Source: a virus. From it: 55,314 nt of DNA. The stretch lies in the IMG/VR virus record IMGVR_UViG_3300045988_177721, positions 1-55,314 of that record; one strand, given 5' to 3'. The notes beneath the pieces are model-generated. The model was given only the letters and a program-made list of their open reading frames with translations. It ran no database searches and was not told where the DNA came from. Of this stretch, positions 818-44,025 are shown piece after piece; position 1 is the first letter of the stretch, and each line of letters opens with the position of its first letter. A program made the translations under genes and the position numbers.

Positions 818-864
818 GAGAAGTTGATTTAATAAATATATTACTTTTTAATTTTCAACTTCTC
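818..864 (-). promoter_or_regulatory. Conserved stem-loop element, copy D (minus strand), upstream of the phosphoesterase gene
   Basis: Minus-strand reading GAGAAGTTGA-[aaaattaaaaagtaatatatttattaaa]-TCAACTTCTC. The loop shares a 20-nt identical core TAAAAAGTAATATATTTATT with copies B and C, while the 10-bp stem differs by compensatory changes (GTTGA/TCAAC versus AACGA/TCGTT). It is preceded by TTCTCAGAGAA, as in copy B. Confidence 0.6.
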
Positions 865-907
865 TGAGAAAGCTTTTTTTATTATTATTTAGAATCTTCG
901 GTAAGTT

Positions 908-3865
908 TTATTTAATATCTTCATGAGCAAGTATAATTGTACGATAATTAGCTGATTTAACACGTCCGAATGCTTTTTCTAAAATTCGTCTAACTTTTAA
1001 TTGAGCATAATAACTTGTGCAAAGAATCTCTACTCCTCTATTAGTATCTTCTACATAATCAACATCATCTAGATATATCTCATTTTCATCTAAAACTTTT
1101 TCGACTATTTTTTCATAGTTTACATCTTTAAGTTTAGAATCACTTGCCTTTTTAATAATTTTTTTTTCATCTTTAACATATCTTTCAGGATTATAAAAAT
1201 AACCATCCTTCATAGCTTTTTCAATATTTTTAGTAGGTCCATAAAATCTATATAAAGTCTCATCTCTATTTCTTTTTAGAGCAACAACTGTTAATTCATA
1301 TTCTTTAGCAACAAGTTTTGGGTCTTCGTCTGTTTGTCCCCACCATTCTTCAACATAAGAATCTTTAAGTTTAGAATCTTTGGTAACTTTTTTATATAAT
1401 TTTATAATATTTAAAAGTTTTTCACTATTGTTAACTTTAGAATCAATAGTTTTAATATTTTTGATAAAGTATAATTTTAATATATTTTTTAACTCTTCAT
1501 AATCTATATCCGTTGTCATAACTTTAATAGTATCATTTGCTACTAATTTACTATTCATAAATTTTTCTTTTCTTTGTAAAGATTTTAAAGCATCATTTGC
1601 TTCTTTACTTGAATCAAATTTGATTAATATATTTATAGGTTTATTTTCTAATTTATCCTTAACTTTAGAATCTTTATAAGTGTGCTTCTTATATTCGTAA
1701 AGTAAATCATTTATTTTTTTAGAAAGTAACTTACATTTCTCATCTTTAATCTTATTTAATCCATTAGCTCCATCTTCCAATAAACCTACTGTCTCGCTTA
1801 AGAATCCATAATCTCTATTAGAATTTGTTCTTTTATTATTTTTTAAATAATCAACTTCTTGTTCTAATTGCTTATAAACTTGTAAACCTAATTTATAGAA
1901 TTCAGCTATTTTTTCATCATCTTCTTTGCCTAAAATTTTTCTTGAATTAGCTGAATGAGCTCTATCGAAATAATTTCCCATTTGAGCAAATTTATAAGCT
2001 AAATTTTTTAATGTATCAGAATCTTTTAATTCCTTTTTTAAATCTTCAGTAACTTCTTCGTAAGTATCAACATCTCTGGCTTTGATTTTTTTATATTTTT
2101 TCCAAGTTTCAAAATCTTCTCTTACCATATAATCACTATAATCATCGTATTCTTTAACTAAATCAGGTCGAGTGTCCATATAGTCAAGAAAATCTTCAAC
2201 TAAATCTTCATCTTCATTTCTTAAAGTATTTCTAATCTTTTTTAAATGAATTCCTCTTAACGCACCATCTCTCATTTTTTTATTCTCCTCATCTTCAAAA
2301 AATTTTTTATTATTTATATAAGTAATTTCTTTTTCTACAAAAATTACATATGGAATACCATCTTCTTTTTCTAATTTCTTTTGTTCATATTGAGCTTCAC
2401 TTAGAGATGTAAAAGTTCTCTCTGGTTTAGCTCTGCCATGTGATATATCCCATTTTCTTTCTGTTGTTATTCCATAAATAGTAACAACTTTTAGATTTAA
2501 TTTGTCTATTTCTTTTTTTGGGTCTTCGCTATAATCACAGCTAGCAACTCCTTTGCCTTTATATCTGATTTCATAATGAGCGTCATCAGAAGTTCTGCCT
2601 ACTAAATATACATCAAAACCATTATAAGTAAATTCTTTCTTTTCAATATCTTTAATAATTGAATCTTCTGTAAATGTATTTAACCATTTATTTAATTCTT
2701 TAACCGAATTAAACTCTTTCTTTTCTCCTTTTTGTAAATCATTGTCCCAACCATTATAAACACCTTCTGCGATAATTTTTCCGTTTTTTCTATAAATATA
2801 CATATTACCTTTAGGTGTTCCCCAGTCAGTAGTTCCGAACCAAGAATTTTCATCTCCTACTTCCGATTCTCTAAACATTCTCCGCGTTGTTCCAGCATCA
2901 TTTATATTATTTTTTTCAAAATTTTCAGCCCTTAAAGTTTTAAGTTCTGTTATATGTTCTAATTCTTCAGCAATTATATGAGCATATATAGATTTATCTG
3001 CTTCATTAGCATATTTCATAGCTTCTTTATAACCAACAATTGCTTCTTCTTCATCGGCTATTAATTCATCTATTTTTTTGATTCTTTCTTCAGGAGATAA
3101 ATCCTTTAATTTTTCAGAATAACCAGAGTCTTTTAAACTATTAAAATCTTTATATATATCAGTAATCCAATCAACTAATTCAGCAATTTCATCTTCTGTT
3201 ATACCTTTAATATTATTAACTTCAGCAATAGCATCATCTCTATTATAATTATATTTTTTAAAAATTTTAAGCAATCTTGTTTTACGATTTTTAATATTAA
3301 CATCCTTAATAGAGTCTACTACTTCTTGGGTTTCTTTAGATGAGCTATCTTGAATTCTTGCAATACCAGCTCTTCCAGCTTTACATAAAGCGATATGATT
3401 TCCTCTAATGTTTGCTTGATATAAATTATCGCCTTCACCTAAAATATCACAATCATACCCACAAGATAACTCTGTTTTTTCTCCTGATTCAATTTCAGCA
3501 ATGGCTTCAGGGTCCGTGAAAATTAAATTAGCAATAAGAATATCAACATCGTTTAACTTAGAGGCTCTAACATCTCTAGCAAATCCAATTGCATAATCTC
3601 GATAATTATCAACGTTTACATCTTCATCAGGATGTTCATCAACTAGAGGTTTATTTTCAAAAGAAGCAATAGTTGATGGAGATAAAACTTCAGATTTAGG
3701 CCTATCAATTTGTATAACTGAATCGTCGTTAGAATCTTGAAAAATTTCAGATTTCAAATATTCTTGTTTTCCTGTTCGAGCAATGATAGAATCAACACAA
3801 ACTAGATATCCTTCTGGAGTTTTATATCGTCGATTACTTAGTTTTACTTTACTTAAAAACTTCAT
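908..3865 (-). CDS. Large (985 aa) virion-associated multidomain protein; function unknown (candidate minor head, internal or tail protein)
   Basis: Long ORF in the late block. The N-terminal roughly 150 aa resembles a DUF2213-type phage domain (..ELSCGYDCDI..). The central helix pair EEEAIVGYKEAMKYANEADKSIYAHIIAEELEHITEL resembles a ferritin or rubrerythrin-like E..EExxH metal site. The remainder is K/E/D-rich. Confidence 0.6.
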   Translation of the reverse strand: MKFLSKVKLSNRRYKTPEGYLVCVDSIIARTGKQEYLKSEIFQDSNDDSVIQIDRPKSEVLSPSTIASFENKPLVDEHPDEDVNVDNYRDYAIGFARDVRASKLNDVDILIANLIFTDPEAIAEIESGEKTELSCGYDCDILGEGDNLYQANIRGNHIALCKAGRAGIARIQDSSSKETQEVVDSIKDVNIKNRKTRLLKIFKKYNYNRDDAIAEVNNIKGITEDEIAELVDWITDIYKDFNSLKDSGYSEKLKDLSPEERIKKIDELIADEEEAIVGYKEAMKYANEADKSIYAHIIAEELEHITELKTLRAENFEKNNINDAGTTRRMFRESEVGDENSWFGTTDWGTPKGNMYIYRKNGKIIAEGVYNGWDNDLQKGEKKEFNSVKELNKWLNTFTEDSIIKDIEKKEFTYNGFDVYLVGRTSDDAHYEIRYKGKGVASCDYSEDPKKEIDKLNLKVVTIYGITTERKWDISHGRAKPERTFTSLSEAQYEQKKLEKEDGIPYVIFVEKEITYINNKKFFEDEENKKMRDGALRGIHLKKIRNTLRNEDEDLVEDFLDYMDTRPDLVKEYDDYSDYMVREDFETWKKYKKIKARDVDTYEEVTEDLKKELKDSDTLKNLAYKFAQMGNYFDRAHSANSRKILGKEDDEKIAEFYKLGLQVYKQLEQEVDYLKNNKRTNSNRDYGFLSETVGLLEDGANGLNKIKDEKCKLLSKKINDLLYEYKKHTYKDSKVKDKLENKPINILIKFDSSKEANDALKSLQRKEKFMNSKLVANDTIKVMTTDIDYEELKNILKLYFIKNIKTIDSKVNNSEKLLNIIKLYKKVTKDSKLKDSYVEEWWGQTDEDPKLVAKEYELTVVALKRNRDETLYRFYGPTKNIEKAMKDGYFYNPERYVKDEKKIIKKASDSKLKDVNYEKIVEKVLDENEIYLDDVDYVEDTNRGVEILCTSYYAQLKVRRILEKAFGRVKSANYRTIILAHEDIK

Positions 3866-3904
3866 ATTTCTTTTCCTTTCTAAAAATTTATAAAAATAAT
3901 TTAT

Positions 3905-3924
3905 ATACTAATTATATAATCAAA
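3905..3924 (-). promoter_or_regulatory. Candidate late promoter motif TTTGATTATATAAT (minus strand), about 45 nt upstream of the 985-aa gene
   Basis: The 14-nt motif is identical to the one found about 45 nt upstream of the scaffold-like gene (49804-49817). It contains a perfect TATAAT with no obvious -35. Confidence 0.3.
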
Positions 3925-4003
3925 ATCTCTTTAAATATAATCATATAAGCTTAAAATTAAGCATTTAAGAGACTTTTACATGTTTAGTATATAAATTATA
4001 AGA

Positions 4004-13009: not shown

Positions 13010-13204
13010 TTATAACGCCTCCCAATCATTAGCTAAGGTATTAGATATAGTTAAACCTAAATCACCTTCTGTAATTTCTTTTCCATTACTTAAATGAATA
13101 GTTAATTTGAAAGTTGATTGGTCGATAAACCAATAACCTTTCCAACCTTTTCTTCTAACCTTTAGACCTGCTTTCATCATTTTCCAAGCATCTCTAAATT
13201 TCAT
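13010..13204 (-). CDS. DUF2829-domain protein, Tad2-like (Thoeris anti-defence sponge family)
   Basis: 64 aa: MKFRDAWKMMKAGLKVRRKGWKGYW...NTLANDWEAL. This matches the DUF2829 signature (F.eAl.amk.GkkvrRkgW ... DWEi). It is embedded in the late operon and translationally coupled to the downstream gene. Confidence 0.6.
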   Translation of the reverse strand: MKFRDAWKMMKAGLKVRRKGWKGYWFIDQSTFKLTIHLSNGKEITEGDLGLTISNTLANDWEAL

Positions 13205-13945: not shown

Positions 13946-15535
13946 CTACTTTTTAGAATGCTTAAATAGTTTTTTGAATAATGAATCTTTTTGTTTTGTT
14001 ATAAACTCATTTTCATTTTCTTTAATTTCATTTTCATTTTCTTCTTCAGGTTCATCCAAATCGATATTTTCAAATTCATCTTTAGTATTTTCTTCAAGTT
14101 CTTTTAAATATTCTTCATCAAAACCAAAATTAATTTCATTCTTATTAATAAAGTGTTGAAGAATTTCAGCATATTTCTTAGTTGTTAAAATACCATCACC
14201 TAACATACTTGATAATAAAGTTTGAAATTTAGATAAACCATCCATTCTTTCATCATCATGTTTTTTAATTAATAATGAATTAAATTCAAATTCAATATTT
14301 TCTTTGATATTGTATTTTTTGTAAAGAATCCACAAAAACTTTTCAAGGACTGGTCTAAAATAAGATTCAGCTCTATTTAAAATTGTTTCATCATATCTTT
14401 CTAATGCGTCCGTATCATTTGAGAATCCTTGTTTTAAATCTCCAAATAACACACCTTGCATTTCTAAAGCTGCAGAGATTAACCACATATTTTGTTCTAA
14501 TAACTCGGCTAATCCATTTAAACCTGAAAAACCATGTTCTTGGTATTCGTCTTCTTTATCTAAGAAGGTTAAACTGTTATATGTCCTACCCCAGTTAACC
14601 ATTTCTAACCTAGCTCGAAGTTGATTTTCTGAAGCTTCATCTTGACCCATGAAAACTCCTCTCATTCCAGCCATTTTGATAACTTCAATCAATGCTTTAT
14701 TAACTAAAGATTGAATTGATGCTTTAAGTTGGTCATCTCTCGATAATTCGTTAAGAATGTGAGCTCCTTCTGCATATCCCCAACCTTGAAGCTGACCAGT
14801 TTTAATTAATTTAGGAGCTGTACGGTGTTCATATCTAAGAATGAAATCATGATGAACATTCATGCTAACTCCATCTGCAAAAGTAATTCTATAAGTTTTA
14901 GGTTTACCGAAGTCTAAAGATTTCATATTTGACACAGTATCTTCTGAAACAACTCCTACACCATACCATCTGTCCGTAACATACAATCGAATACTTTTAG
15001 AATCTTGTATTTTCTTTAAATCCATAGGTTTAGCGTAATCTTCATTGTTCATAGTATCAAACATAACAACTGCTACTGACCCACCAAATAAAGCACCCCA
15101 TTGTAGAAGATTGATAAAATCAGTTCGATATTTTTTTAAATCTTTTAAAATCATATCTTTTTTTTCTTCGTCTTTTAAACTTAAAGTTATGCCACAACGA
15201 ACAACATCAGTTGATGGTTTATCAATAGCTCTTCTAAAAACCCAAGAATCGTTATACAGAGCTAACCACAAAGGCCAGTTTAGAGTATCATTTGAAAAAC
15301 CGTAATTAGTGAACGATTGAACTTTATCGTCAGTACCAATAGAACTTAGAGTATTTCCATAGTGGTCGTGAATTGAACTTTTCATTGCTTCAGAACTATT
15401 ACCTAAGTCAACTAATTTTTCTATTTTTTCTTCAGAGCTATCTTCTAATGTTTTTCTTTCACTATCTTTTAACTGCATTTCTTTCATCATAGCAATAACT
15501 TTAGAATTACTGTAATTTTTATTTTCCTCTGACAT
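13946..15535 (-). CDS. Putative portal protein
   Basis: 529 aa with an acidic C-terminal tail (EENTKDEFENIDLDEPEEENENE). It is the first gene of the late operon, and its size and acidic C-terminus are typical of portals. No family motif was verified. Confidence 0.4.
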   Translation of the reverse strand: MSEENKNYSNSKVIAMMKEMQLKDSERKTLEDSSEEKIEKLVDLGNSSEAMKSSIHDHYGNTLSSIGTDDKVQSFTNYGFSNDTLNWPLWLALYNDSWVFRRAIDKPSTDVVRCGITLSLKDEEKKDMILKDLKKYRTDFINLLQWGALFGGSVAVVMFDTMNNEDYAKPMDLKKIQDSKSIRLYVTDRWYGVGVVSEDTVSNMKSLDFGKPKTYRITFADGVSMNVHHDFILRYEHRTAPKLIKTGQLQGWGYAEGAHILNELSRDDQLKASIQSLVNKALIEVIKMAGMRGVFMGQDEASENQLRARLEMVNWGRTYNSLTFLDKEDEYQEHGFSGLNGLAELLEQNMWLISAALEMQGVLFGDLKQGFSNDTDALERYDETILNRAESYFRPVLEKFLWILYKKYNIKENIEFEFNSLLIKKHDDERMDGLSKFQTLLSSMLGDGILTTKKYAEILQHFINKNEINFGFDEEYLKELEENTKDEFENIDLDEPEEENENEIKENENEFITKQKDSLFKKLFKHSKK

Positions 15536-15569
15536 ATTGGAAAAATCCTCCTTTCTTTTTATATAATAT

Positions 15570-15598
15570 ATTATATCATATTATTTAAAAAAAGTACA
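15570..15598 (-). promoter_or_regulatory. Candidate promoter for the minus-strand late operon (extended -10 TGATATAAT on the minus strand)
   Basis: Minus-strand reading tgtact-N17-TGATATAAT, about 28 nt before RBS AAGGAGG and the ATG at 15535. The -35 is weak. Confidence 0.35.
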
Positions 15599-15800: not shown

Positions 15801-15896
15801 ATAATAATATTATAAAATTATTTAATATTTAATAAAATATAACTTAAACTATATACCGCTAACATTTGAAAGTAATTAAGAACCTATATTAAGTAT

Positions 15897-16080
15897 CTAT
15901 TAACATTTTGGATTTAATGAAATGTTAATAGTCATTACAAACTTTTGAAAAATTTGAATCAAAATGTTAATAGGAAGTTAATAGGAAGTTAATAGGTCAT
16001 CTTAATAGAGAATTTGCATATTTGAAAGTATTTAGAGACTATTAACATCATCTATTAACATTCATCATTTTTATTAACAT
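15897..16080. repeat. Iteron-like array of a 10-bp motif CTATTAACAT / ATGTTAATAG (at least 8 copies, both orientations); candidate replication origin or operator array
   Basis: Direct copies start at 15897, 16039, 16052 and 16071. Inverted copies lie at 15922, 15964, 15977 and 15988, including tandem GTTAATAGGAA x2.5. Variants occur at 15717, 15737 and 15859. The array lies between the divergent early and late operons. Confidence 0.6.
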
Positions 16081-16147
16081 TTATCATTTTTTTATTGTCA
16101 TCTTAATAATCACTAAACAAATTTTTTAAAATAAATTATCATTTTAA

Positions 16148-16196
16148 TTTACATACCTTTAAAAATGTGATATAATTAAATTGTAAAAATTAATAA
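16148..16196 (+). promoter_or_regulatory. Early promoter P1 (TTTACA-N17-TGaTATAAT) plus conserved leader ATTAAATTGTAAAAATTAAT
   Basis: -35 at 16148-16153, -10 at 16171-16176 with TG at -15/-14, A/T-rich upstream element (aaataaattatcat). The leader contains the inverted repeat ATTAA-N10-TTAAT. Confidence 0.75.
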
Positions 16197-16213
16197 AGGA
16201 GAAAATAAAAATT

Positions 16214-16528
16214 ATGAAACAAATTATTGTTAGAATTAATGATTATGATGGAAAATTAATTGCAAAAGATTATTACTATTCACAAGCAAGATTTAATGAT
16301 GAAGGAGCAGATTTTATTTACCAATTTTTAAATCCTGGTTGTGAAGTTCAAATCAAGATTGGTAATTTATATTCAAAATATTTAACACATTCTGAATTAT
16401 TAGATATTATAAAAGAAGTTGAGTTATTAGATAATACTAATTATAATGAAAGAGAATGTATATATGATTATTTAATAAACGATTATGGTGTTCAATATTA
16501 TATGAAAGAATATTTACCTAAATATTAA
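16214..16528 (+). CDS. Hypothetical early protein
   Basis: 104-aa ORF with RBS AAAGGAGAAAA, first gene after P1. Confidence 0.65.
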   Translation: MKQIIVRINDYDGKLIAKDYYYSQARFNDEGADFIYQFLNPGCEVQIKIGNLYSKYLTHSELLDIIKEVELLDNTNYNERECIYDYLINDYGVQYYMKEYLPKY

Positions 16529-16558
16529 AAAAAAAATAAAAATAAATTATCATATTAG

Positions 16559-16607
16559 TTTACATACTTTTAAAAGTGTGATATAATTAAATTGTAAAAA
16601 TTAATTT
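16559..16607 (+). promoter_or_regulatory. Early promoter P2 (same cassette)
   Basis: TTTACA 16559-16564, N17, TATAAT 16582-16587 with TG. The conserved leader is identical to P1. Confidence 0.75.
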
Positions 16608-16626
16608 AAAGGAGAAAATAAAAATT

Positions 16627-16953
16627 ATGAAATTAAGAGATGCTTTACAAAAAGGAATTATTACTTTAACAGATTTAGAAAAAGAATGTTTAAATGCAAT
16701 TAGAGACCAAGGAAGCTTCTATGAAGAATCTATGGATTACAATCCTGAAACAGGAGAAAATGAATTTTCAGAAGGTCAATTCTTCGGTTGGGAAATATAT
16801 GAAAGTGAAGTAAAAGGTTGTAGAGGAGCTATTGCATCATTAGTTAAAAAAGGAGTATTAGATACTTTGGATGATGATGAATGTACTGCTTATTATATTA
16901 ATTATGAATTAGAATTTGAAGATGATAATATATGGAAAATTAAATTTGAATAG
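16627..16953 (+). CDS. Hypothetical early protein
   Basis: 108-aa ORF with RBS AAAGGAGAAAA. Confidence 0.65.
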   Translation: MKLRDALQKGIITLTDLEKECLNAIRDQGSFYEESMDYNPETGENEFSEGQFFGWEIYESEVKGCRGAIASLVKKGVLDTLDDDECTAYYINYELEFEDDNIWKIKFE

Positions 16954-16973
16954 AGTTTTTAAAACTCTTTCTT
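16952..16973 (+). terminator. Candidate intrinsic terminator (short hairpin AGAGTTT-tta-AAACTCT plus TTCTT)
   Basis: 7-bp stem, 3-nt loop and a U-rich tail immediately after the stop codon. Confidence 0.35.
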
Positions 16974-17013
16974 AAAACCACAAACTGGTCCTAAGTCCAG
17001 TATAATCATAAGG

Positions 17014-17370
17014 TTGAAGGAGAAAGTGAGAAAAAATAAAATGAAAAATAATGAAATTGAAAAATTTGTGAAATTATTAAAAGAAAATGATTTTACAGAT
17101 TCGTATGATTCCTATTTAATTGTAAATGATAATGATGTTATTTATAAAGACCAAGGAGGTTGGTTTGAATTAAAATTAGTTAATAAAAAAGAACAAAAAT
17201 ACATATTCAAATGTGATACATATAGTGATGAACCTTATTCCAAAATTATTAGTGGTGAAAAAGAATTTGATGAATTTTTAGAAGAATTTAAAACATTATA
17301 CTGTTTTGATAATAGTGCTTATGATTTTATTCTAGATGAAGATGATGAAGATGAGGATGTAGAGTGGTAA
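17014..17370 (+). CDS. Hypothetical early protein, acidic C-terminus (DEDDEDEDVEW)
   Basis: 118-aa ORF with RBS GGAGAAAG. Confidence 0.6.
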   Translation: MKEKVRKNKMKNNEIEKFVKLLKENDFTDSYDSYLIVNDNDVIYKDQGGWFELKLVNKKEQKYIFKCDTYSDEPYSKIISGEKEFDEFLEEFKTLYCFDNSAYDFILDEDDEDEDVEW

Positions 17371-18569: not shown

Positions 18570-18832
18570 GAAAGCGAATAATGTTAGTAGACCCACAAAT
18601 AAAAAACGAACCATTATATGTTGATTTTTATGATAAGCATTATGCACCAGTAATAAACGACCAATACGTTTGCGATTTAACACCAAAACAAGTTTTGCAA
18701 ATTATGAATAGTAATAGTTATGAATCAACAATTGTCGTGGATATAAACGTTATAAATGAGTTAGGAATTGATTATGAAATAATACCGAAATATGAAAATA
18801 AAAGATATTTTTTTAGAAAGGAGAATAAATAA
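18566..18832 (+). CDS. Hypothetical early protein
   Basis: 88-aa ORF with RBS GGAGGAG. Confidence 0.55.
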   Translation: MRKRIMLVDPQIKNEPLYVDFYDKHYAPVINDQYVCDLTPKQVLQIMNSNSYESTIVVDINVINELGIDYEIIPKYENKRYFFRKENK

Positions 18833-19443
18833 TGAAAATAACAGATTTTAAAAAAGAAGATTTAGAAAAAGGTATTATGATTAGAAGAAAGGGATGGGCA
18901 AAAGATATATCAATTTCTTTTAATAAAAGTGCTAGTATTTTTGATGCTTATATTAATGGAATTATAACAGGTGATAAAACAGATTTAACACTTGAAGATA
19001 TTACAAGTGATGATTGGGAAATAGCTGACGAACCTAATAAAAGCTGGAAGCCTAAAGAAGGTGATACCATTTTTTATATAACCGAATCAGGTAGAGTAAT
19101 ATCTGGCTCTTTTCTATCACTCTTACCTAGTGATAATGATAAAGTACTTTTTAACAATGCTTTTCAAACCAGAGAAGAAGCCGAACATATGCTTGAAAAA
19201 ATAAAAATTATTAATAAATTAAGAGAGTTATCAAATATTAATTTTAATGAAACTGATGACCACCATTATATGATTGTTTATCATAAGACTGATAATGAAA
19301 TAATTAGCGACTATTGCTTTAGTTTAAATCCAATACCCTTTAATGTATTTTTTAAGACTAGAGAAGACTGCCAAAAAGCCATTGAAACAATAGGCGAAGA
19401 TAATTTGAAGAAGTATTATTTTGATATTAAGGAGGAAAAATAA
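18832..19443 (+). CDS. Two-domain DUF2829 (Tad2-like) protein, paralog 1 of 3
   Basis: N-terminal ...GIMIRRKGWAK...TSDDWEIADE (DUF2829-like) followed by a roughly 140-aa C-terminal domain shared with 20945..21547 and 40401..41039. Shared motifs are WKPKeG, F.T.EEAeHm.EK.KiI..L, PFN.fF and IGEd.LKKYYFDiK. Confidence 0.55.
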   Translation: MKITDFKKEDLEKGIMIRRKGWAKDISISFNKSASIFDAYINGIITGDKTDLTLEDITSDDWEIADEPNKSWKPKEGDTIFYITESGRVISGSFLSLLPSDNDKVLFNNAFQTREEAEHMLEKIKIINKLRELSNINFNETDDHHYMIVYHKTDNEIISDYCFSLNPIPFNVFFKTREDCQKAIETIGEDNLKKYYFDIKEEK

Positions 19444-20915: not shown

Positions 20916-20944
20916 TACAATAAAATGAAATGAGGAATAAAACA

Positions 20945-21547
20945 ATGGATTTTAAAGAAGCATATCAAAAAATGTTAGAAGGAAAGAAAGTTAAAAGAAA
21001 AGGTTGGGAAGACTGGCAATATTATAAATTAATTGGAGATAATATGTATTATGCTAACAAACTAATAGCTTCAAATGTTAGTATTGAAAACGCTTTAGCT
21101 AACGATTGGGAAGTTGTAGAAGAAACTAAAAGCAAAGTTTGGAAACCTAAAAAAGGTGAAAATTATTTTTTTATCACTAGCAGTTTAGAAGTTAATAAAT
21201 TTACAAATGAAGGAGATATGGTTGATGAAAGTATTATAGGCTGCGATAATTGTTTTAAAACTGAAGAAGAAGCTCAACATATGATAGAGAAGTTAAAAGT
21301 AATAAAAGAATTACAAAATTTTGCTTTAGAAAATAGAGATGAAGAAATTAGTTGGGATGAAGATAGTCGTTATAAATTTTATATTTACTTTGATTATAAG
21401 TGGAAAATGATAAGAATTACTTGGGCTACTGTAGCACATGGCTCTCCTTTTAATATATATTTTGCTTCAGAAAAAGCAATACATGATGCTATTGAATCTA
21501 TTGGTGAAGACAGAATTAAAAAATATTACTTTGATGTTAAAGATTAA
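20945..21547 (+). CDS. Two-domain DUF2829 (Tad2-like) protein, paralog 2 of 3
   Basis: MDFKEAYQKMLEGKKVKRKGWEDWQYYKL...ALANDWEVVEE is a canonical DUF2829 N-domain. The C-terminal domain is conserved with paralogs 1 and 3. Confidence 0.6.
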   Translation: MDFKEAYQKMLEGKKVKRKGWEDWQYYKLIGDNMYYANKLIASNVSIENALANDWEVVEETKSKVWKPKKGENYFFITSSLEVNKFTNEGDMVDESIIGCDNCFKTEEEAQHMIEKLKVIKELQNFALENRDEEISWDEDSRYKFYIYFDYKWKMIRITWATVAHGSPFNIYFASEKAIHDAIESIGEDRIKKYYFDVKD

Positions 21548-22254: not shown

Positions 22255-22279
22255 AAAATAAAAATAAATTATCATATTA

Positions 22280-22328
22280 TTTTACATACTTTTAAAAATG
22301 TGATATAATTAAATTGTAAAAATTAATA
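22280..22328 (+). promoter_or_regulatory. Early promoter P3 (same cassette)
   Basis: TTTACA 22280-22285, N17, TATAAT 22303-22308 with TG. The leader is ATTAAATTGTAAAAATTAAT. Confidence 0.75.
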
Positions 22329-22329
22329 A

Positions 22330-22400
22330 TAAATCATTTCTGAGAAAACGAAAAAATAAAATTAATATATTTATTCATTTGAATTCTTATAAATGATTTA
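22330..22400 (+). promoter_or_regulatory. Conserved stem-loop element, copy A (variant stem)
   Basis: A 10-bp perfect stem TAAATCATTT (22330-22339) / AAATGATTTA (22391-22400) encloses GAGAAAACGAA and ATTAATATATTTATTCATT, which are conserved with copies B, C and D. It lies between P3 and the small ORF at 22420. Confidence 0.5.
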
Positions 22401-22419
22401 GAGGAAAGGAAAATAATTA

Positions 22420-27150: not shown

Positions 27151-28314
27151 ATGGAAAATAATCAAATTATATGGTCACATAGTAAATTATCAACTTTATT
27201 AAAATCACCGATGAATTATAATTTAAGTTATAATTATGGTGTTTTTCCAAAGTTCGAAAAAGAAGCTTTAGGATTAGGTTCAGCAGTTCATTGGGGTATT
27301 GAGTATAATACTTCTGATTTAGAAAAATATTATGAAGAAAATTCAAAATTTAAAAATAAAGCTAAAATAAAAGACGAACAAATAACCGCTGAATCAATGG
27401 TAGGTGGGTATCTAACTCATAAAAATAAATTATTTGATATTATTTTAGAAAATGATGAATTAATATCTGAAGTTCATGAATTAAAAATTTATGGTATTCT
27501 TCCTTCAAAAATTTTAAAAGAGGGAAATAAATTTGTTGGAATTATTGATTTACTACTATTAACAAACAAAGGATTTATCGTTGTTGATTATAAAACTTCA
27601 TCTTCCATTCCAGATTGGTCAAATTATTTAGACCAACTTTATAGATATATTTTCTTATTAAATTCTGAATTTCCAGAAACTCCAGTTTATAAAATTGCAA
27701 TAATTAATTTAAGAAAATGTAGAGTTAAAAGAAAACCAAATGAAAATGATGCTTCTTTTAGAAAAAGATTAGATATAATATATCAATTAAATGATGAACA
27801 ACATATCGATGTTCATGTGTTTAAATCAAACGAACTTAATATTACTGATATGAATACATATATTAATAATTTATCAATCATGTGCGATGCCGGTTTATCA
27901 ATTATTAATAATAATTGTTATTATACTAATTATGCTAGTTTAGATGATTATGGAGGTTCAGATTTAAAGGAATTATTACTAAAAGAAGATGGAGCATATA
28001 CTTTGTATAATATTCGAGATAAATATTATAATGAATTGTCAAATACAATTGATGATTATAGGGACATGCAAGAATTAGATGTTGAAGTAATATTTAATAA
28101 TTATAATTATATCGATAGATATTCAAAATTTAAAGAAATATATGATAAATTTTTAAAAGAATTTGAAATTAATGAAAATTTTGAAAAATTTGATGATTAT
28201 TTTATATGTTATATTTCTGAAATGAATTATAATTATGATGAAAAATTAATTCGAAATTATTTAATAGTTTATAAATACTGTTTAAAGGAAAAAGAGAAAG
28301 AAAAAATAAAATAA
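27151..28314 (+). CDS. PD-(D/E)xK nuclease, RecB/Cas4-like exonuclease
   Basis: Core GIIDLLLL...IVVDYKTSS (D...D.K) and a downstream QLYRY (the QxxxY motif of the RecB-family nuclease fold). 387 aa. Confidence 0.6.
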   Translation: MENNQIIWSHSKLSTLLKSPMNYNLSYNYGVFPKFEKEALGLGSAVHWGIEYNTSDLEKYYEENSKFKNKAKIKDEQITAESMVGGYLTHKNKLFDIILENDELISEVHELKIYGILPSKILKEGNKFVGIIDLLLLTNKGFIVVDYKTSSSIPDWSNYLDQLYRYIFLLNSEFPETPVYKIAIINLRKCRVKRKPNENDASFRKRLDIIYQLNDEQHIDVHVFKSNELNITDMNTYINNLSIMCDAGLSIINNNCYYTNYASLDDYGGSDLKELLLKEDGAYTLYNIRDKYYNELSNTIDDYRDMQELDVEVIFNNYNYIDRYSKFKEIYDKFLKEFEINENFEKFDDYFICYISEMNYNYDEKLIRNYLIVYKYCLKEKEKEKIK

Positions 28315-28326
28315 ATTATCATATTA

Positions 28327-28375
28327 TTTTACAAACTTTTAAATTTATGATATAATGATTATGTAAAAATTAATA
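28327..28375 (+). promoter_or_regulatory. Early promoter P4 (diverged copy of the cassette)
   Basis: TTTACA 28327-28332, N17, TATAAT 28350-28355 preceded by TGA. The upstream AAATAAATTATCAT element is present. Confidence 0.65.
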
Positions 28376-28394
28376 ATGAAAGGAGGAAATTATA

Positions 28395-28718
28395 TTGAGT
28401 AAAAACAATTTGAAATTATTAGAAAGAAATGATTTGGAAGTATTTATTAACAAATATGAATTTACCATTCATGACCAATATGTTATTGTTTCAGTAAAAA
28501 CATTTAATCGGCCAACATTACACGATAAAAGCAAATCTTTTTCAATTTCATGTAATAACCGAAAATTAATTATTACACCTGAAGCAATTAATTTATGGGA
28601 AAATCATTTTAGAGATAAGAACTTAATTGAAGTTCAAAATGCATTAAATACAATAATTTTAATGTATCAATCTCCAAATCCACAAGATGTCGAAAAAATT
28701 TTAAATAAAGAAATTTAA
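28395..28718 (+). CDS. Hypothetical protein (TTG start)
   Basis: 107-aa ORF with RBS AAAGGAGGAAA. The start codon is TTG. Confidence 0.5.
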   Translation: MSKNNLKLLERNDLEVFINKYEFTIHDQYVIVSVKTFNRPTLHDKSKSFSISCNNRKLIITPEAINLWENHFRDKNLIEVQNALNTIILMYQSPNPQDVEKILNKEI

Positions 28719-39621: not shown

Positions 39622-39642
39622 TACCTTCTTTTATTTTTTTTT
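39607..39642 (+). terminator. Intrinsic terminator after terL
   Basis: Hairpin GGAGGTA-ttgtttag-TACCTTC (7 bp including one G.U) followed by TTTTATTTTTTTTT. It overlaps the terL stop. Confidence 0.55.
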
Positions 39643-39662
39643 AAAATAAATTATCATATTAT

Positions 39663-39711
39663 TTTACATACTTTTAAAACTGTGATATAATTAAATTGTA
39701 AAAATTAATAA
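39663..39711 (+). promoter_or_regulatory. Early promoter P5 (same cassette)
   Basis: TTTACA 39663-39668, N17, TATAAT 39686-39691 with TG, plus the conserved leader. Confidence 0.75.
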
Positions 39712-39729
39712 AGGAGATTTTTAAAAATT

Positions 39730-39933
39730 ATGAAAGAATTAATATTAAATGAAGAAGAAAGTCAAGTATTATTAGAACAAGGATATATTGAAATTGAACG
39801 TAACGGATTTCTATTAAGTTTAACAGAAAATTCAAATTTTAATAAAAATAAAAAAGAAAGTGTTTTTAATAGAAAATATTTAGTAAATATTGTTGATACT
39901 TTTGATAAAATTATTATTAATGAAGACAAATAA
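39730..39933 (+). CDS. Hypothetical small protein
   Basis: 67-aa ORF with RBS AAAGGAGA. Confidence 0.5.
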   Translation: MKELILNEEESQVLLEQGYIEIERNGFLLSLTENSNFNKNKKESVFNRKYLVNIVDTFDKIIINEDK

Positions 39934-39946
39934 GGAGATTGAATAT

Positions 39947-40165
39947 ATGAAAATAATTGAATTAAATAAAGATGAAATTGGATTATTAAAACTTGGTTAT
40001 TGTGTTGAAAAGAAAGTAAATGGTATTGTGTACAACGTTTATCTTGAAAATGGAAAATACAAAGCATATCGAAAATTAAAAGGACTCTATAATGGTACAT
40101 CATATATGAATTATAGAGAATCTATAAACCCTACTAAGTTTAATTTTAAAGAGAAAGAACTTTAA
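39947..40165 (+). CDS. Hypothetical small protein
   Basis: ORF track 39890..40165. The likely start is 39947 (MKIIELNK), after RBS AAGGAGATTG. Confidence 0.5.
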   Translation: MKIIELNKDEIGLLKLGYCVEKKVNGIVYNVYLENGKYKAYRKLKGLYNGTSYMNYRESINPTKFNFKEKEL

Positions 40166-40184
40166 TTTTAAGGTTCTTTTTCTT
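40154..40184 (+). terminator. Intrinsic terminator (AAAGAACTTT-loop-AAGGTTCTTT plus TTCTT)
   Basis: About 10-bp stem with one U.G pair, 6-nt loop and a U-rich tail. It overlaps the stop codon at 40163-40165. Confidence 0.5.
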
Positions 40185-40248
40185 AAAACCAGCATTGAAT
40201 GGTTGCAACTCCATTATGTGAAAGGTTGAGCAAGAAAGAGAGTAAATT

Positions 40249-40383: not shown

Positions 40384-40400
40384 GGAGGAATAAAAAAAAT

Positions 40401-41039
40401 ATGAATTTTAGTGAAGCTTTATATAAAATGAAAGAAGGAAAAAAAGTAAAAAATGAATTTTTAAATAAACATGGATACTTATACATGTTTTTAGATAAAG
40501 AAAAAGGTATTATGATTAGAACTCTTAATGATGAATACGATGAAATTTATGAAAATTTATCTACAGAAGAACTTTTATCAGAAAATTGGGAAATATATGA
40601 AGAGTCTAAATGGAAACCGAAAGAAAAAGAATTATATTTTTATATTACTTCAAATGGAGACATAGAATTTAGTTATTATAAAAATAAAAGTATAAATGAT
40701 AAACGTCGTATTTATGATATTGGTAATTATTTTAAAACGGATGAAAAAGCTGAACATATTGTGGAGAAGTTAAAAATAATAAGAGAGCTACAAGATTTTG
40801 CTTTAGAGAATAATGACAAAAACGTTGATTGGAGAGATAAATGCACAGGTAAATATTTTATAACTTATGATTTTTATGATGAAGAAATCTCAATCGCTAG
40901 TTATACTTTTAGAAATTTTTTACCATTTAATATTTTCTTTACTTCAAAAGAGATAGCTCAAAAAGCTATTACAAAAATAGGAAAAGAACGACTTGAAAGA
41001 TATTACTTTGATATAAAAGAAAAAGAAGAAATAAAATAA
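40401..41039 (+). CDS. Two-domain DUF2829 (Tad2-like) protein, paralog 3 of 3
   Basis: MNFSEALYKMKEGKKVKNEF...LSENWEIYEE N-domain, with a C-terminal domain conserved with paralogs 1 and 2 (WKPKEKELYFYITS, FKTDEKAEHIVEKLKIIRELQDFALEN, PFNIFFTS, IGKERLERYYFDIKE). Confidence 0.55.
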   Translation: MNFSEALYKMKEGKKVKNEFLNKHGYLYMFLDKEKGIMIRTLNDEYDEIYENLSTEELLSENWEIYEESKWKPKEKELYFYITSNGDIEFSYYKNKSINDKRRIYDIGNYFKTDEKAEHIVEKLKIIRELQDFALENNDKNVDWRDKCTGKYFITYDFYDEEISIASYTFRNFLPFNIFFTSKEIAQKAITKIGKERLERYYFDIKEKEEIK

Positions 41040-41052
41040 ATTATCATTTTAA

Positions 41053-41101
41053 TTTACATACTTTTAAAAATGTGATATAATATATTTATAATAAATAAAG
41101 G
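41053..41101 (+). promoter_or_regulatory. Early promoter P6 (cassette with a diverged leader)
   Basis: TTTACA 41053-41058, N17, TATAAT 41076-41081 with TG. Confidence 0.7.
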
Positions 41102-41114
41102 AGAAAAAAGAATT

Positions 41115-41522
41115 ATGATTTATTATATTGAAGTAAACAAAAATCCAAAAAAGAAAAGAACAGGAGATTGCTCAACTAGAGCATTATGTAATATATTAGA
41201 TATTTCATATGCGGATGCATTAAAAGAACAATGTGAAGCAAGTTTAAAAACAGGTTATGATATTACATCAAGGCAAACTGTTGATTATATCATGAAAAAT
41301 CATGGATGGATAAAACAAAAACAACCTAAAACCATTTACAATGCAAAAGTAAAAATTTCAAATTTAGATGAAGCAATTGATTCAAAATATATAGATGAGG
41401 ATGGTAAAGGTATATTAATTTCAACTAGAAAACATTGGACAGTTGTTAGGGATTATACAGTTGAAGATACATGGGATTGTAGAGATTACTGCTGTGGAAT
41501 TTATTATACTAAAGAAAATTAA
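41115..41522 (+). CDS. Small Cys/His protein, possible papain-fold (NlpC/P60- or C39-like) peptidase
   Basis: 135 aa. Candidate nucleophile in TGDCSTRALCNIL (resembles DCSG of NlpC/P60) and candidate His in RKHWTVVRDY. RBS AAAGGAGAAAAAAG. Confidence 0.35.
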   Translation: MIYYIEVNKNPKKKRTGDCSTRALCNILDISYADALKEQCEASLKTGYDITSRQTVDYIMKNHGWIKQKQPKTIYNAKVKISNLDEAIDSKYIDEDGKGILISTRKHWTVVRDYTVEDTWDCRDYCCGIYYTKEN

Positions 41523-41532
41523 AAACACTCTC

Positions 41533-41579
41533 AGAGAAAACGAAATTTAAAAAGTAATATATTTATTCATTCGTTTTCT
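41533..41579 (+). promoter_or_regulatory. Conserved stem-loop element, copy B, 19 nt upstream of the SNF2 gene
   Basis: GAGAAAACGAA (41533-41543), loop atttaaaaagtaatatatttattca, then TTCGTTTTCTT (41569-41579): an 11-bp stem including a terminal G.U. Preceded by TCTCAGAGAA. Confidence 0.6.
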
Positions 41580-41597
41580 TATAGAAAGGAGAATTAA

Positions 41598-43136
41598 ATG
41601 AGTATATATGAAAAGTTATTTAATTGGCAACAAAAAATAGTAAATAAATATAAAGATAGAACTGATTTTGGAATTTGGTTGGATATGGGTTTAGGTAAAA
41701 CTCCCATATCCTTATCCTTTGCAGAAATTAATAATTGTTCAAAAATATTAGTAATTACAATAAATTCAAAAATTGAAGATAGTTCAATTTCAGGTTCATT
41801 CGCAAATTGGTTATTAAACTCAAATATTAAATATAATTTACATTATAAGAGTGATAAAGAATTTAATTTTAAAACCGATGAGAATGATTTCTTTATTGTC
41901 AATTACGAATACTTATTTAAAAGAAAAAAAACAAATGAGAGAAATTCAATTGAATTAAGAAAAGAAATAACAGACTTTATTAATTCTTGTAAAGGTCATA
42001 ATTTAGCTATTATAATTGATGAGTCTCATAAAATAAAAGACCAAAATTCAACACAAACAAAATGTATAAATAAAATTAAAAAGTTAGCTTTACTTAAAGC
42101 GTCAAATGTTTATTCTTATTTATTAACAGGAACTCCATTTACACAAGGTTATATTGATTTATATTCTCAATTAAAGTTTTTAGGTTATGAATCATCTAAA
42201 CAGGATTTTAAAGATGCGTTCTGTATAGTCGGAAACATTAAAGGTCTTCTTGGATGGCAACAACCAATCGTGGGTTATAAAAATATTGATGGATTATACA
42301 GAATTATTCATCGATATGCTATCACAATTCAAACTGATGAGGTTGAAGATTTACCAGACCAAGTTCATATTTCAATTAAACAAAAAGAATCTGAGTTATT
42401 TAACTTATTTATACATGAAAAAATTAAAGGTAATGAAATAAAGAAAGAACTTGAAAAAAGAAAAGTATTATCTGATTTAAACAGATACAATACGGATATT
42501 TTAATGAATAATCCTTTTTATCGGAACATTGATTATCCTGAACAAAAGTACGTAGCTGATACACCTGGAAATTTTTGGTTAAGAGCTCGTCAGTTATCGA
42601 TTGGATTTCAAGGAAATTCAAAAGATTATTGTTGGTATGATAAAACCAGATTGGAAGAATTAGAATTCTTTTTAGAAAATAATCCAGATAATTATATATT
42701 ATTTTATAATTATACCCCTGAATTGTATGAGATATTTGATATTTGTGAAAAATTAAAATATAATATCGATATATTTTCAGGAGAAATAAAATCTTTATAT
42801 TTTTATGAAAAATATCAATCTCAATCGCCTGAAGAAAAATTTACAAATAAAAAAAATATAATATTAGCAAACTTTGCAAGTGGTTCAACAGGTAAAAATT
42901 GGCAAGAATATAATAAATGTATTATATTTTCAATACCAGTTTATAAAGATTATTCTCAAGGAATTAAGAGAATTCATCGACTCGGGCAAAAAGAAACGGT
43001 AATTTATTATCATTTTTATCAATCTAATTTTTTAGATTATGGGATGAAAAAAGCATTAGATGAAAAAATAGATTATAATATAAATATGTTTCAAAGTGAT
43101 TTAAAGAATAACGATAATTTATTAAATAAGACTTAA
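41598..43136 (+). CDS. SNF2-family (SF2) DNA-dependent ATPase/helicase
   Basis: Motif I IWLDMGLGKT (SNF2 DEMGLGKT), motif II IIIDESHKIK (DExH), SNF2-specific LTGTPFTQGYIDLYSQLKFL (LSGTP.qN...ELw.ll.FL) and C-terminal helicase-C motifs. Confidence 0.7.
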   Translation: MSIYEKLFNWQQKIVNKYKDRTDFGIWLDMGLGKTPISLSFAEINNCSKILVITINSKIEDSSISGSFANWLLNSNIKYNLHYKSDKEFNFKTDENDFFIVNYEYLFKRKKTNERNSIELRKEITDFINSCKGHNLAIIIDESHKIKDQNSTQTKCINKIKKLALLKASNVYSYLLTGTPFTQGYIDLYSQLKFLGYESSKQDFKDAFCIVGNIKGLLGWQQPIVGYKNIDGLYRIIHRYAITIQTDEVEDLPDQVHISIKQKESELFNLFIHEKIKGNEIKKELEKRKVLSDLNRYNTDILMNNPFYRNIDYPEQKYVADTPGNFWLRARQLSIGFQGNSKDYCWYDKTRLEELEFFLENNPDNYILFYNYTPELYEIFDICEKLKYNIDIFSGEIKSLYFYEKYQSQSPEEKFTNKKNIILANFASGSTGKNWQEYNKCIIFSIPVYKDYSQGIKRIHRLGQKETVIYYHFYQSNFLDYGMKKALDEKIDYNINMFQSDLKNNDNLLNKT

Positions 43137-43245
43137 AAATGTCATTTTCTGAACTTTTAAATAAAAGTAATATAAATTATAATAGTATTTTTAAAAGTTT
43201 AAAAATGATATGATTTTGAGTCTTAAATTAAAAAGGAGAATTTTT

Positions 43246-43656
43246 ATGAAAAAAGTATTAAAAGAAATTTTATTTTGGACATGGTGTTTACCTCAAACCT
43301 TATTAGGATTTATTTTAAAAATTTTATTTAAAGGAAAAAGAAATTACGAGCCAGCAATAGTGTTTGATAAATTTGATAATATTACCTATTATGATTGCAA
43401 TTTAAGCTCTGGTTCGATATCATTAGGTAAATATTTATTAATATGTAAAGGTCATTCTTCAAATACTCAAATAATTAAACATGAATATGGTCATCAAAAA
43501 CAATCATTTATTTTAGGTCCTTTATATTTATTAATTATCGGACTTCCATCCTTATTATGGGCAAATATATTTTGGAATCCTAAAAAACACAATTATTATT
43601 GGTTTTATACTGAATCATGGGCAAATAAATTAGGAAATGTAAAAGAATATGAGTAA
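43246..43656 (+). CDS. Small two-TM membrane protein with an HExxH zinc-metallopeptidase motif (HEYGHQKQ)
   Basis: ORF track 43210..43656. The likely start is 43246, after RBS AAAGGAGAA. Hydrophobic helices ILFWTWCLPQTLLGFILKILF and FILGPLYLLIIGLPSLLWANIFW flank HEYGH. Confidence 0.45.
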   Translation: MKKVLKEILFWTWCLPQTLLGFILKILFKGKRNYEPAIVFDKFDNITYYDCNLSSGSISLGKYLLICKGHSSNTQIIKHEYGHQKQSFILGPLYLLIIGLPSLLWANIFWNPKKHNYYWFYTESWANKLGNVKEYE

Positions 43657-43981
43657 GTTAACTCCTGAAAAAAAAATCCAAAATAAAGTCATAGCTTATA
43701 TTAAAGAATTACAAAGTAAAGGAATCAACATTGATTATGAACGGCGACAAGCAGGTGGATTTAATTATCAAAAAGGCAAACCAGATTTATTTGTTGTTTT
43801 GGAAGGAATTCATATTGAAATAGAAGTTAAAAAGCCAGGAGGTAAAACAACTCCTCTTCAAGATAAATTTGCTGAGAAATGTAAAAGAATGAACTGTTTA
43901 TATTATTTAATAGACGATGTTGAATATTTTAAAAATTTAATATTAAATTTAATTAACTTATATTCAACATCATCATTGTAA
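43649..43981 (+). CDS. VRR-NUC domain nuclease (PD-(D/E)xK)
   Basis: GKPDLFVVLEGIHIEIEVKKPGGKTTPLQDKF matches the VRR-NUC signature (G.PD ... E.K ... Q.f). 110 aa. Confidence 0.7.
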   Translation: MSKLTPEKKIQNKVIAYIKELQSKGINIDYERRQAGGFNYQKGKPDLFVVLEGIHIEIEVKKPGGKTTPLQDKFAEKCKRMNCLYYLIDDVEYFKNLILNLINLYSTSSL

Positions 43982-44025
43982 GAAAACGAAATTTAAAAAG
44001 TAATATATTTATTCATTCGTTTTCT
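43981..44025 (+). promoter_or_regulatory. Conserved stem-loop element, copy C, at the 3' end of the plus-strand block
   Basis: AGAAAACGAA-atttaaaaagtaatatatttattca-TTCGTTTTCT, identical to copy B in both stem and loop. No downstream gene. Confidence 0.6.

Follow-up and report, generated by a model that had tools for sequence, protein, structure and literature searches.

Repeated regulatory hairpins are classic features of the model phages T7 and lambda. The RNase III sites of T7 (R0.3 to R18.5) comprise about ten related hairpins per genome, each with a helix of ~20 bp and with internal and apical loops that are both small, and they set the stability of mRNA segments. In lambda, the boxB hairpin has a 5-bp stem and a 5-nt loop, occurs in two copies per genome near the early promoters, and is paired with boxA. 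For the large groups of uncultured gut phages, almost nothing is, to our knowledge, known about gene control. The subject here is a family of hairpins in an uncultured gut phage, IMG/VR virus record IMGVR_UViG_3300045988_177721, of which the whole stretch of 55,314 nt was analyzed (hereafter, the window). The window holds at least six of these hairpins (A, B, C, D and F, with E as a probable member), in which a stem of 10–16 bp carries an A/U-rich loop of 21–30 nt with the core AAAAG-TAATATA. They are almost certainly real structures maintained by selection, judging from the comparison of related genomes. The best reading, to which a probability of roughly 40% is assigned, is that of an mRNA hairpin whose loop would be read by a trans-acting RNase or RNA-binding protein.

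Comparison with Described Hairpin Systems

The window hairpins resemble the T7 RNase III sites, and the early-mRNA sites of Bacillus phage SP82, in their intergenic placement in what would be polycistronic mRNAs, in preceding ribosome binding sites (RBSs) or marking the ends of units, and in sharing sequence among copies. They differ from the T7 sites in the dimensions of stem and loop and in a loop that is unpaired and invariant in sequence. A site of the T7 type has about two helical turns of double-stranded RNA, with an upper and a lower stem around the internal loop; outer stems lengthen the helices of A and F to ~20 bp or more, and those of B, C, D and E span 10–16 bp. An A-U upper stem within the loop, predicted for D, was discarded as a family trait because it is not maintained in F or in other lineages (L033, L048).

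As with boxB/N of the lambda nut site and with HK022 put, the loop sequence would be what is read, the stem need only pair, and loop and reader would vary by lineage. Unlike boxB, the hairpin occurs in six or more copies, most of them remote from promoters and one directly before a terminator. The features that define nut (boxA plus boxB) are not seen here: the loop is 21–30 nt long, there are six copies with only A near a promoter, and no boxA-like motif is shared by their flanks. Hairpin promoters of the N4 type, which are served by a virion RNA polymerase, have a 5–7-bp stem and a 3-nt loop. The sizes of stem and loop differ here, and no RNA polymerase gene was recognized among the scanned proteins (throughout, ~50 window proteins scanned against Pfam or PHROGs; many small open reading frames, or ORFs, had no domain match), so this class was set aside as well.

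The origins of geminiviruses, circoviruses and rolling-circle plasmids occur in one copy per replicon and are served by a Rep (HUH) nickase. In these origins, the A/T-rich loop is invariant and the stem covaries from one relative to another, a combination that is also found here. The complement of the loop contains ATATTAC, resembling the origin nonanucleotide TAATATTAC, a likeness of an A/T-rich 7-mer that may be due to chance. The six copies and the lack of an HUH/Rep domain among the scanned proteins do not agree with a rolling-circle origin.

REP palindromes can stabilize upstream mRNA, and the arms of REP and MITE elements are conserved and depend on RAYT or a transposase. Palindromes of the REP/BIME and MITE kinds are, like the window hairpins, short and extragenic, lie in operons or end them, and vary in presence between close relatives (PMC3184786). 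Assignment to this group fails because the arms drift here and the centre is conserved, copy A appears as a replacement without clear duplication, and no transposase was found among the scanned proteins.

Two phage systems described in the literature are also similar in part. PeSLs consist of a stem-loop followed by a full sigma-70 promoter with a 17-nt spacer and by a Shine-Dalgarno sequence (PMC2839356, PMC4122927). The PeSL and PmSL elements of T4-type phages are likewise repeated intergenic stem-loop cassettes near variable small ORFs, for which modular shuffling has been proposed (PMC2839356, PMC4122927). The window hairpin differs in that it has no −35/−10 pair and its conserved part is the loop itself; if TATATT is taken as a −10 element, the −35 position reads AGAAAA or AGAAGT, and the comparison was not upheld. 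ESAS elements of Cluster K mycobacteriophages have conserved 17-bp inverted-repeat arms, a variable spacer of 4–13 bp and an adjacent 13-bp SAS (PMC3203893). The likeness lies in inverted repeats before the translation starts of a subset of genes, with biased orientation and restriction to a lineage (PMC3203893), but the pattern found here is the opposite, with variable arms and a conserved spacer.

A search of Rfam 15 gave no match at gathering score or at E ≤ 1 for any window hairpin or for five related loci. The family thus appears to be undescribed, as a preliminary description made from the sequence of the window had proposed, and its architecture, in which a long unpaired loop stays invariant while the stem drifts, is unusual.

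Hairpin Copies in the Window

The preliminary description had recognized four copies (A–D). All four were read at the positions it gave, with one slip in the 5′ arm of C, while the count proved too low, since F and probably E also belong to the family. The coordinates are collected in Table 1. The 20-mer TAAAAAGTAATATATTTATT has three exact matches in the window and six matches at ≤3 mismatches, against 0.59 expected, and none of 100 shuffles reached six. In RNA folding, hairpins A–D were more stable than shuffled sequences (z −2.3 to −4.5).

Table 1. Positions of the hairpins and of two further features treated in the text (window coordinates, unless a related locus is named).
Feature	Position	Strand	Support
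Copy B	41529–41585	+	Fold −12.8 kcal/mol, z −2.3; covariance model 82.3 bits
Copy C	43975–44031	+	z −3.9; covariance model 77 bits
Copy D	813–869	−	z −4.5; covariance model 72.5 bits
Copy A	22330–22400	+	Covariance model 40.9 bits; folding
Copy F (new)	43139–43211	+	Folding; relatives
Copy E (probable)	53702–53763	−	Fold z −3.5; inverted-repeat search; 12-bp stem ATAATTTCAGAA / TTCTGAAATTAT
Bidirectional terminator, perfect palindrome of 18+18 nt between A and T runs	44038–44073		Inverted-repeat search
Family 2 loci	L019 2606–2660; L030 ~3860–3930; L033 9879–10003; L045 ~1040–1150; L070 and L071, upstream of 3001

Copy B consists of the 5′ arm GAGAAAACGAA (41534–41544), a 25-nt loop (41545–41569) and the 3′ arm TTCGTTTTCTT (41570–41580), and is followed by the RBS GAAAGGAG and the ATG of the SNF2 gene at 41598. 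Copy C has the same loop and 3′ arm and is identical to B over 52 nt, but its 5′ arm is AAGAAAACGAA (43980–43990), not GAGAAAACGAA, and its stem reaches 14–15 bp (43976–43990 with 44016–44030). It overlaps the stop codon (43979–43981) of the last plus-strand gene, and no gene lies downstream. Copy D has the arms GAGAAGTTGA / TCAACTTCTC, with the stem AGAGAAGTTGA / TCAACTTCTCT (both read at 865–817 of the minus strand) around a 27-nt loop with an identical core, upstream of the ATG of a metallophosphoesterase gene at 786. Three fully compensated pair differences between B and D can be read directly from the sequence.

In copy A, an outer 10-bp stem (TAAATCATTT / AAATGATTTA) encloses a degenerate B-type hairpin at 22337–22393. 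This copy occupies a leader, with an early sigma-A-type promoter upstream (TTTACA 22282–22287, TATAAT 22304–22309) and the ATG of a 57-aa ORF downstream at 22419. Copy F combines an inner stem (TGAACTTTTAAA / TTTAAAAGTTTA), an outer stem (ATGTCATTTT / AAAATGATAT) and a 28-nt loop (TAAAAGTAATATAAATTATAATAGTATT); it begins 3 nt past the SNF2 stop codon and ends 32 nt before a likely ATG at 43243. The stems of F are unrelated to those of the other copies; outer-stem sequence is shared between A and F. Copy E lies upstream of a 588-aa late gene, and its loop on the minus (gene-sense) strand holds AAAAATTAATATATTA, close to AAAATTAATATATT of copy A. Scores of the covariance model are slightly higher on the opposite, plus strand (20.3 bits, versus 15.1 on the minus strand), leaving the orientation ambiguous, and E is therefore called only a probable member. 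In a close relative, the stem of E is kept and its loop has one substitution.

Most copies share a setting: they lie in the orientation of the genes, just past a stop codon and 17–32 nt before the next start, and do not cover RBSs. B, F and C bracket two gene modules. The placement of B, A and D upstream of genes and in their orientation had been proposed earlier and holds, although the gaps then given as 19–32 nt are in fact 17 nt for B, 18 nt for A and 31 nt for D.

A separate 15-bp inverted repeat with a 32-nt A/T-rich loop occupies the last 22 codons of the VRR-NUC gene (43913–43974), just before copy C. It lies inside the coding tail, is not kept in two relatives (L018, L034) and is probably not a member of the family.

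Conservation and Covariation in Relatives

Homologs of the SNF2 protein numbered 622 at E ≤ 1e-30, many of them on contigs of 50–56 kb. The relatives compared fall at SNF2 identities of 96–90%, 78%, 70%, 69%, 65% and 58–52%; the close relative referred to here is a single 58-kb IMG/VR contig with 94% identity. The exact 20-mer core was found at 17 loci in IMG/VR, where the family members came only from IMGVR_UViG_3300045988_176542 and the remaining loci, without flanking arms, look like chance matches in A/T-rich DNA. The exact 21-mer core gave 15 matches in 185,579 genomes, none with a hairpin, and so yielded no host clue and no host counterpart. A stem-based pattern scan returned no match, and a looser pattern returned only chance matches among the matches listed.

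Relatives with SNF2 identities as low as 78% have the same 25-nt loop, and an identical 21-nt core, at sites B, C and D, although their stems and flanks differ. For a neutral 25-nt stretch at one site, the probability of remaining unchanged at ~20–25% divergence is estimated at roughly 0.002. Sites B, F and C persist from 96% to 65% SNF2 identity. Taken together, the metagenomic relatives at 58–96% SNF2 identity retain the loop at homologous sites on stems altered by compensated substitutions.

The changes in the stems are largely compensated. At site B, with the loop unchanged, AAAACGAA/TTCGTTTT becomes AAAATGAA/TTCATTTT, so that a C-G pair is replaced by U-A. At site C, AAGAAAACGAA/TTCGTTTTCTT is replaced by AAGAAGATGAA/TTCATCTTTTT in L043 (two compensated pairs and one G.U) and by AATAAAATGAA/TTCATTTTATT in L034 (two compensated pairs). 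The close relative has GAGAATTTGAA / TTCAAATTCTC at site D instead of GAGAAGTTGA / TCAACTTCTC, a change of G-C to U-A. Site F shows C-G to U.G and G.U to A-U among relatives, and in L034 keeps the 20-nt loop core on stems that have been replaced. One copy is uncompensated: in copy B of L050 (9932–9988), the 3′ arm has changed from G to A without a change in the 5′ arm, giving a C.A mismatch that is apparently an intermediate between two compensated stem states.

These observations were quantified in two alignments. In the first, gap-free and made of 11 distinct 57-mers, 89% of stem cells were paired (against 42–51% with slid partners), seven of 16 pairs showed double-sided changes, and no shuffle reached the covariation score. 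The second added copies recovered with a covariance model from L033, L048 and L019. Across these 15 distinct copies, standard pairs fill 89.6% of stem cells, against 41–50% when the partner column is slid, nine of the 16 stem pairs change on both sides, and none of 500 shuffles reached the covariation score. Since the counts exceed both the slid and the shuffled controls, selection on pairing is shown by the alignment. Selection on the loop sequence is shown as well, by its identity among relatives whose stems and flanks differ. The earlier statement that pairing and loop are conserved and stem sequence is not has become stronger with the relatives included.

Variation among Lineages

The loop occurs in lineage-specific versions, and one version tends to be common to several sites of a genome. 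L048 has GTAATATAAT; in L033, three sites carry AAACCTTAATAA and another carries AAAAAGTAATATAAAT. The loop type AAACCTTAATAA (class II), which contrasts with the type AAAAGTAATATA, is not present in the window. A lineage-specific loop at several sites would be expected if the reader co-evolves with it.

The stem (T)AGAGAAAACGAA of window copy B recurs in the early and late blocks of the lineages at 70% and 65% identity: in L033 at 9554 and at 16898 (after the capsid gene), and in L048 at sites B and C. L033 also holds two copies with identical stems and different loops. Given a recurring stem and lineage-specific loops, the two behave as separate modules.

Presence and orientation vary as well. 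Copy A is absent from the close relative, where the hairpin and its RBS segment are replaced by a 25-nt RBS stretch and the promoter leader runs directly into the RBS. A D-type hairpin in L034 precedes a different small ORF, one that adjoins SNF2. In L019, two plus-strand genes flank a clear member of the family (48.7 bits) that has its core on the minus strand and is thus inverted; a second L019 hairpin, after the capsid gene, seems to be inverted too.

Strand That Folds

The core is carried in the sense of the flanking gene at window copies A, B, C, D and F and in the L033 and L048 copies. Within helices, the strand that carries the core shows eight G.U cells and one C.A cell, while base composition alone is estimated to predict a G.U:C.A ratio near 1.2 to 1. 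This wobble asymmetry, together with the site F changes of C-G to U.G and of G.U to A-U, favours folding of one strand, which at nearly all sites would be that of the gene sense. Gene-sense orientation of most copies and the excess of G.U over C.A are indirect evidence that the folding strand may be RNA.

Proposed Role in mRNA Processing or Stability

Copies between cistrons have no terminator upstream, and the hairpins are therefore expected to be transcribed through, as parts of polycistronic phage mRNAs. In the proposed mechanism, the stem would need only to pair, holding the loop with its core AAAAG-UAAUAUA single-stranded, and an endoribonuclease or RNA-binding protein, of phage or host, would read the loop sequence-specifically. 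Through binding or cleavage, long transcripts of the early and late blocks would be partitioned into segments, each with its own stability and its own yield, and the hairpins, after stops, before starts and after the last gene, would mark the segment boundaries. The T7 RNase III sites follow this logic, although they differ in shape. We infer that a trans-acting factor reads the loop, with mRNA processing or stabilization as the outcome. Copy C, after the last gene, fits 3′-end processing or stability, and does not fit a promoter, a translational operator or an antiterminator; more generally, the placement of the copies argues against these three roles. Among the roles listed in the preliminary description, a processing or stability site or a protein-binding site is the best fit.

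Several observations count against an mRNA site. The wobble asymmetry amounts to ~11 independent events, with the single uncompensated C.A of L050 among the copies. The sense strand may also be the lagging-strand template, since genes are co-oriented with G+C skew, and RNA and single-stranded DNA look the same in the nucleotide sequence. The inverted L019 member would be unusable by a reader of mRNA loops, and copy A is dispensable in the close relative. Classical RNase III substrates do not have the form of a 10–16-bp stem topped by 25 unpaired loop nucleotides, and no RNase or RNA-binding protein was recognized among the scanned window proteins.

Alternative Explanations

It is possible, if rather unlikely, that the hairpin acts as single-stranded DNA, formed on the lagging-strand template or in melted A/T-rich DNA, with the loop targeted by a phage protein for nicking, priming, helicase loading or initiation of recombination. 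A covarying stem with an invariant loop is the architecture of rolling-circle and geminivirus origins, and the phage encodes a primase, a D5-like helicase, PD-(D/E)XK and VRR-NUC nucleases and a metallophosphoesterase. The sense strand is the G-rich strand on both genome arms, and an iteron cluster (15880–16110) lies roughly opposite B-F-C on the circle, so that a replication bias would look like a transcription bias; the inverted L019 copy, moreover, keeps a G.T wobble on the strand that carries the core. Weighing on the other side, the scanned proteins included no recognizable nickase of the HUH or Rep type, no integrase and no transposase, many small ORFs being without a domain match, and a single origin or nick site would not need six dispersed sites that hug stop codons and RBSs. 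Extrusion of a cruciform with an unpaired 25-nt centre would presumably be costly, and G.T pairs are better tolerated by RNA than by DNA.

We consider it less probable still that the hairpins are recombination linkers, or small duplicative elements, at the borders of gene cassettes, with little or no effect on expression. Identical stretches of 25–50 nt would then let co-infecting relatives swap genes, as proposed for PeSL motifs. Much of the variation among lineages accords with this: copy A with its own RBS takes the place of 25 nt in the window, by comparison with a neighbouring gene context that is 99% similar, the D-type hairpin stands before a different ORF in L034, the L033 copies combine identical stems with different loops, and the inverted loop of L019 could have been flipped by recombination between the arms. 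The bracketing of two modules by B, F and C and the outer-stem sequence common to A and F point the same way. The metallophosphoesterase gene behind D (10–786, minus strand) has homologs 69–73% identical in unrelated phages (L091–L093), which have a different terminase and portal and in which a tRNA gene precedes it; the gene thus moves horizontally as a cassette, and a search of these homologs for D and E variants gave no hairpin. Linkers would leave unexplained, however, both the compensated stem changes at orthologous sites and a loop frozen while its flanks diverge by >20%. The sites are also stable across lineages, no transposase and no target-site duplication were seen, and the arms are not conserved in the way of transposon ends.

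The two functions could coincide. The hairpin would in that case be the site of a lineage-specific phage factor acting on single-stranded nucleic acid and would double as the border of exchangeable cassettes, in an integron- or PeSL-like system of a lytic gut phage made of units of hairpin, RBS and ORF in an array that a final hairpin closes. This joint proposal is given only a small chance of being right.

It is doubtful that the loop serves as a −10-only promoter (TATAWT after AAAAG-TAA), used by host RNA polymerase with a phage factor in middle or late transcription, with the flanking arms helping or gating melting. Most copies do have a −10-like hexamer ~6 nt ahead of the 3′ arm, which is TATATT for A–D and TATAAT for F and for L048 B and C, and the SNF2-upstream site of L020 and L076 holds a canonical promoter (TTTACA/TTAACA-17-TGnTATAAT) in place of the hairpin. 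The sequence at the −35 position is, however, a poor match, copy C is conserved where it would fire straight into the terminator, and a strong promoter stands ~60 nt upstream of copy A. Transcripts initiated within the loop would not include the 5′ arm, leaving the compensated stem changes and the G.U bias unexplained. The suggestion that a phage-specific sigma factor uses the site also fares poorly, as no −35 element occurs at promoter-like spacing and no phage RNA polymerase or sigma factor gene was found among the scanned proteins.

Antitermination, or modification of RNA polymerase through a nut/boxB- or put-like RNA site that loads a factor onto it, was raised by the preliminary description and is suggested by the presence, in the transcribed strand, of a hairpin whose loop is sequence-specific and by the promoter-proximal position of A, but is very improbable, as only A is near a promoter, conserved copy C stands after the last gene and 7 nt before the final terminator, where read-through would enter the converging late genes, no boxA-like partner motif is present, the loop has 25 nt rather than the 5 nt of boxB, six or more copies compare with two in lambdoid phages, and there are few internal terminators to overcome.

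Four further candidates were rejected. Pairing of the loop with the SNF2 start (41559–41571 with 41597–41609) is not in the minimum-energy fold and is broken in L036 by a synonymous AGU-to-AGC change with the loop unchanged, and copy C has no start codon; a translational operator would leave copy C unexplained, and the hairpins leave RBSs uncovered. An intrinsic terminator, which has a G+C-rich stem, a 3–8-nt loop and a U tract directly behind the stem, does not agree with an A/U-rich stem of only two to three G-C pairs, a 25-nt loop and the absence of a U tract (AUAGAAAGG follows B and AAUCACCC follows D), and a terminator scan called no hairpin. A dimeric DNA operator, already disfavoured in the preliminary description, would show one half-site sequence at all sites of a genome and is contradicted by the unrelated arms of B, D, F and E in the window and by variable arm positions that always change together. 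As for an RNA partner of the loop in trans, no complementary segment was found in the window besides the antisense of the copies themselves.

Genome Setting and Other Repeated Elements

The ends of the window are identical over 55 nt in a repeat search (1–55 and 55260–55314), and it is therefore a complete closed circular or terminally redundant phage-like genome of 55,259 bp, with a G+C content of ~25%. No close or characterized isolated relative appears to exist from which knowledge could be borrowed: against isolated phages, megablast of two window segments found nothing, and tblastn with the capsid protein gave only matches of <30% identity.

Genes are arranged in two blocks, with the sense strand of each on the G-rich strand. 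The plus-strand block (16214–43981) starts with many small ORFs and continues with replication genes; its proteins include the D5-like helicase, primase, DNA polymerase, PD-(D/E)XK nuclease and an AAA_24 ATPase, as well as MuF, the large terminase, the SNF2 helicase and the VRR-NUC nuclease. The minus-strand block, which encodes virion proteins, runs from the portal gene at 15535 through the coordinate origin to 44112. Both blocks converge on the terminator palindrome.

Six near-identical early promoter cassettes of ~110 nt appear to drive the plus block (16122–16232, 16533–16643, 22255–22365, 28302–28412, 39637–39747 and 41027–41137). Each has an A/T-rich upstream part, TTTACA-17-TGTGATATAAT and the common leader AATTAAATTGTAAAAATTAATAAAGGAG, sometimes with a terminator in front. 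This 110-nt repeat, and not the hairpin, is the PeSL-like feature of the window. Late promoters may be represented by a (TTT)GATTATATAAT motif without a −35, recurring in intergenic regions of the late block (3866–4003 and 49760–49841, minus strand), and by GATATAATATATTATA upstream of the portal gene (15560–15585). A divergent region of 678 nt separates the portal gene from the first early gene. At 15880–16110 it contains GTTAATAG(G) / CTATTAAC in at least nine copies, some direct and some inverted, which look like replication-origin iterons or operator sites.

Other conserved hairpins occur at the SNF2-upstream site of further lineages. One of these, termed family 2 (Table 1), has a ~37-nt loop with conserved GAACTCTRAGTA and ATAGGTA and a stem that covaries (GAAACGA/TCGTTTTC, GAAGCAA/TTGCTTTC, GGAAGCGA/TCGCTATTCC); it is preceded by a further conserved hairpin and has no match in Rfam. 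In a 73-kb relative, a 20-bp inverted repeat with a 41-nt A/T-rich loop and an inner 12-bp stem (z −7.2) lies directly upstream of SNF2 (L021 338–432, equivalent to L029 3887–3967). The window itself contains a second kind of element twice on the plus strand (16930–17020 and 40140–40235), in which a hairpin ending in CTTTCTTAAAACC is followed by ACTGG-N8-CCAGT or AATGG-N8-CCATT, a compensated pair of versions, and then by AAGGTTGA.

A domain resembling Tad2 (Thoeris anti-defence 2), with the recurring motif KKGWxxW, was observed at the N-termini of proteins encoded at 20930–21547 and 40401–41039. Of the two, both with Pfam matches, one scored above the gathering score and one just below it. 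Possible further Tad2-like starts, judged from the sequence, are at 18832–19443 and, on the minus strand, 13010–13204.

Significance

Set beside the classic hairpins of model phages, the family described here is a clear-cut example: its covariation is strong, its loop is under strong purifying selection, and Rfam has no counterpart of it. With six or more sites per genome, it is spread over a family of phages of roughly 50–56 kb. The hairpin offers a handle for finding the factor that would read the loop, for mapping transcript boundaries in metatranscriptomes and for testing the motif as a joint of cassette exchange. If the reader is indeed a phage-encoded, sequence-specific binder of RNA or single-stranded DNA, or a nuclease, it could be a useful tool. 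If the hairpin also borders cassettes, one motif would both control the expression of a cassette and mediate its exchange.

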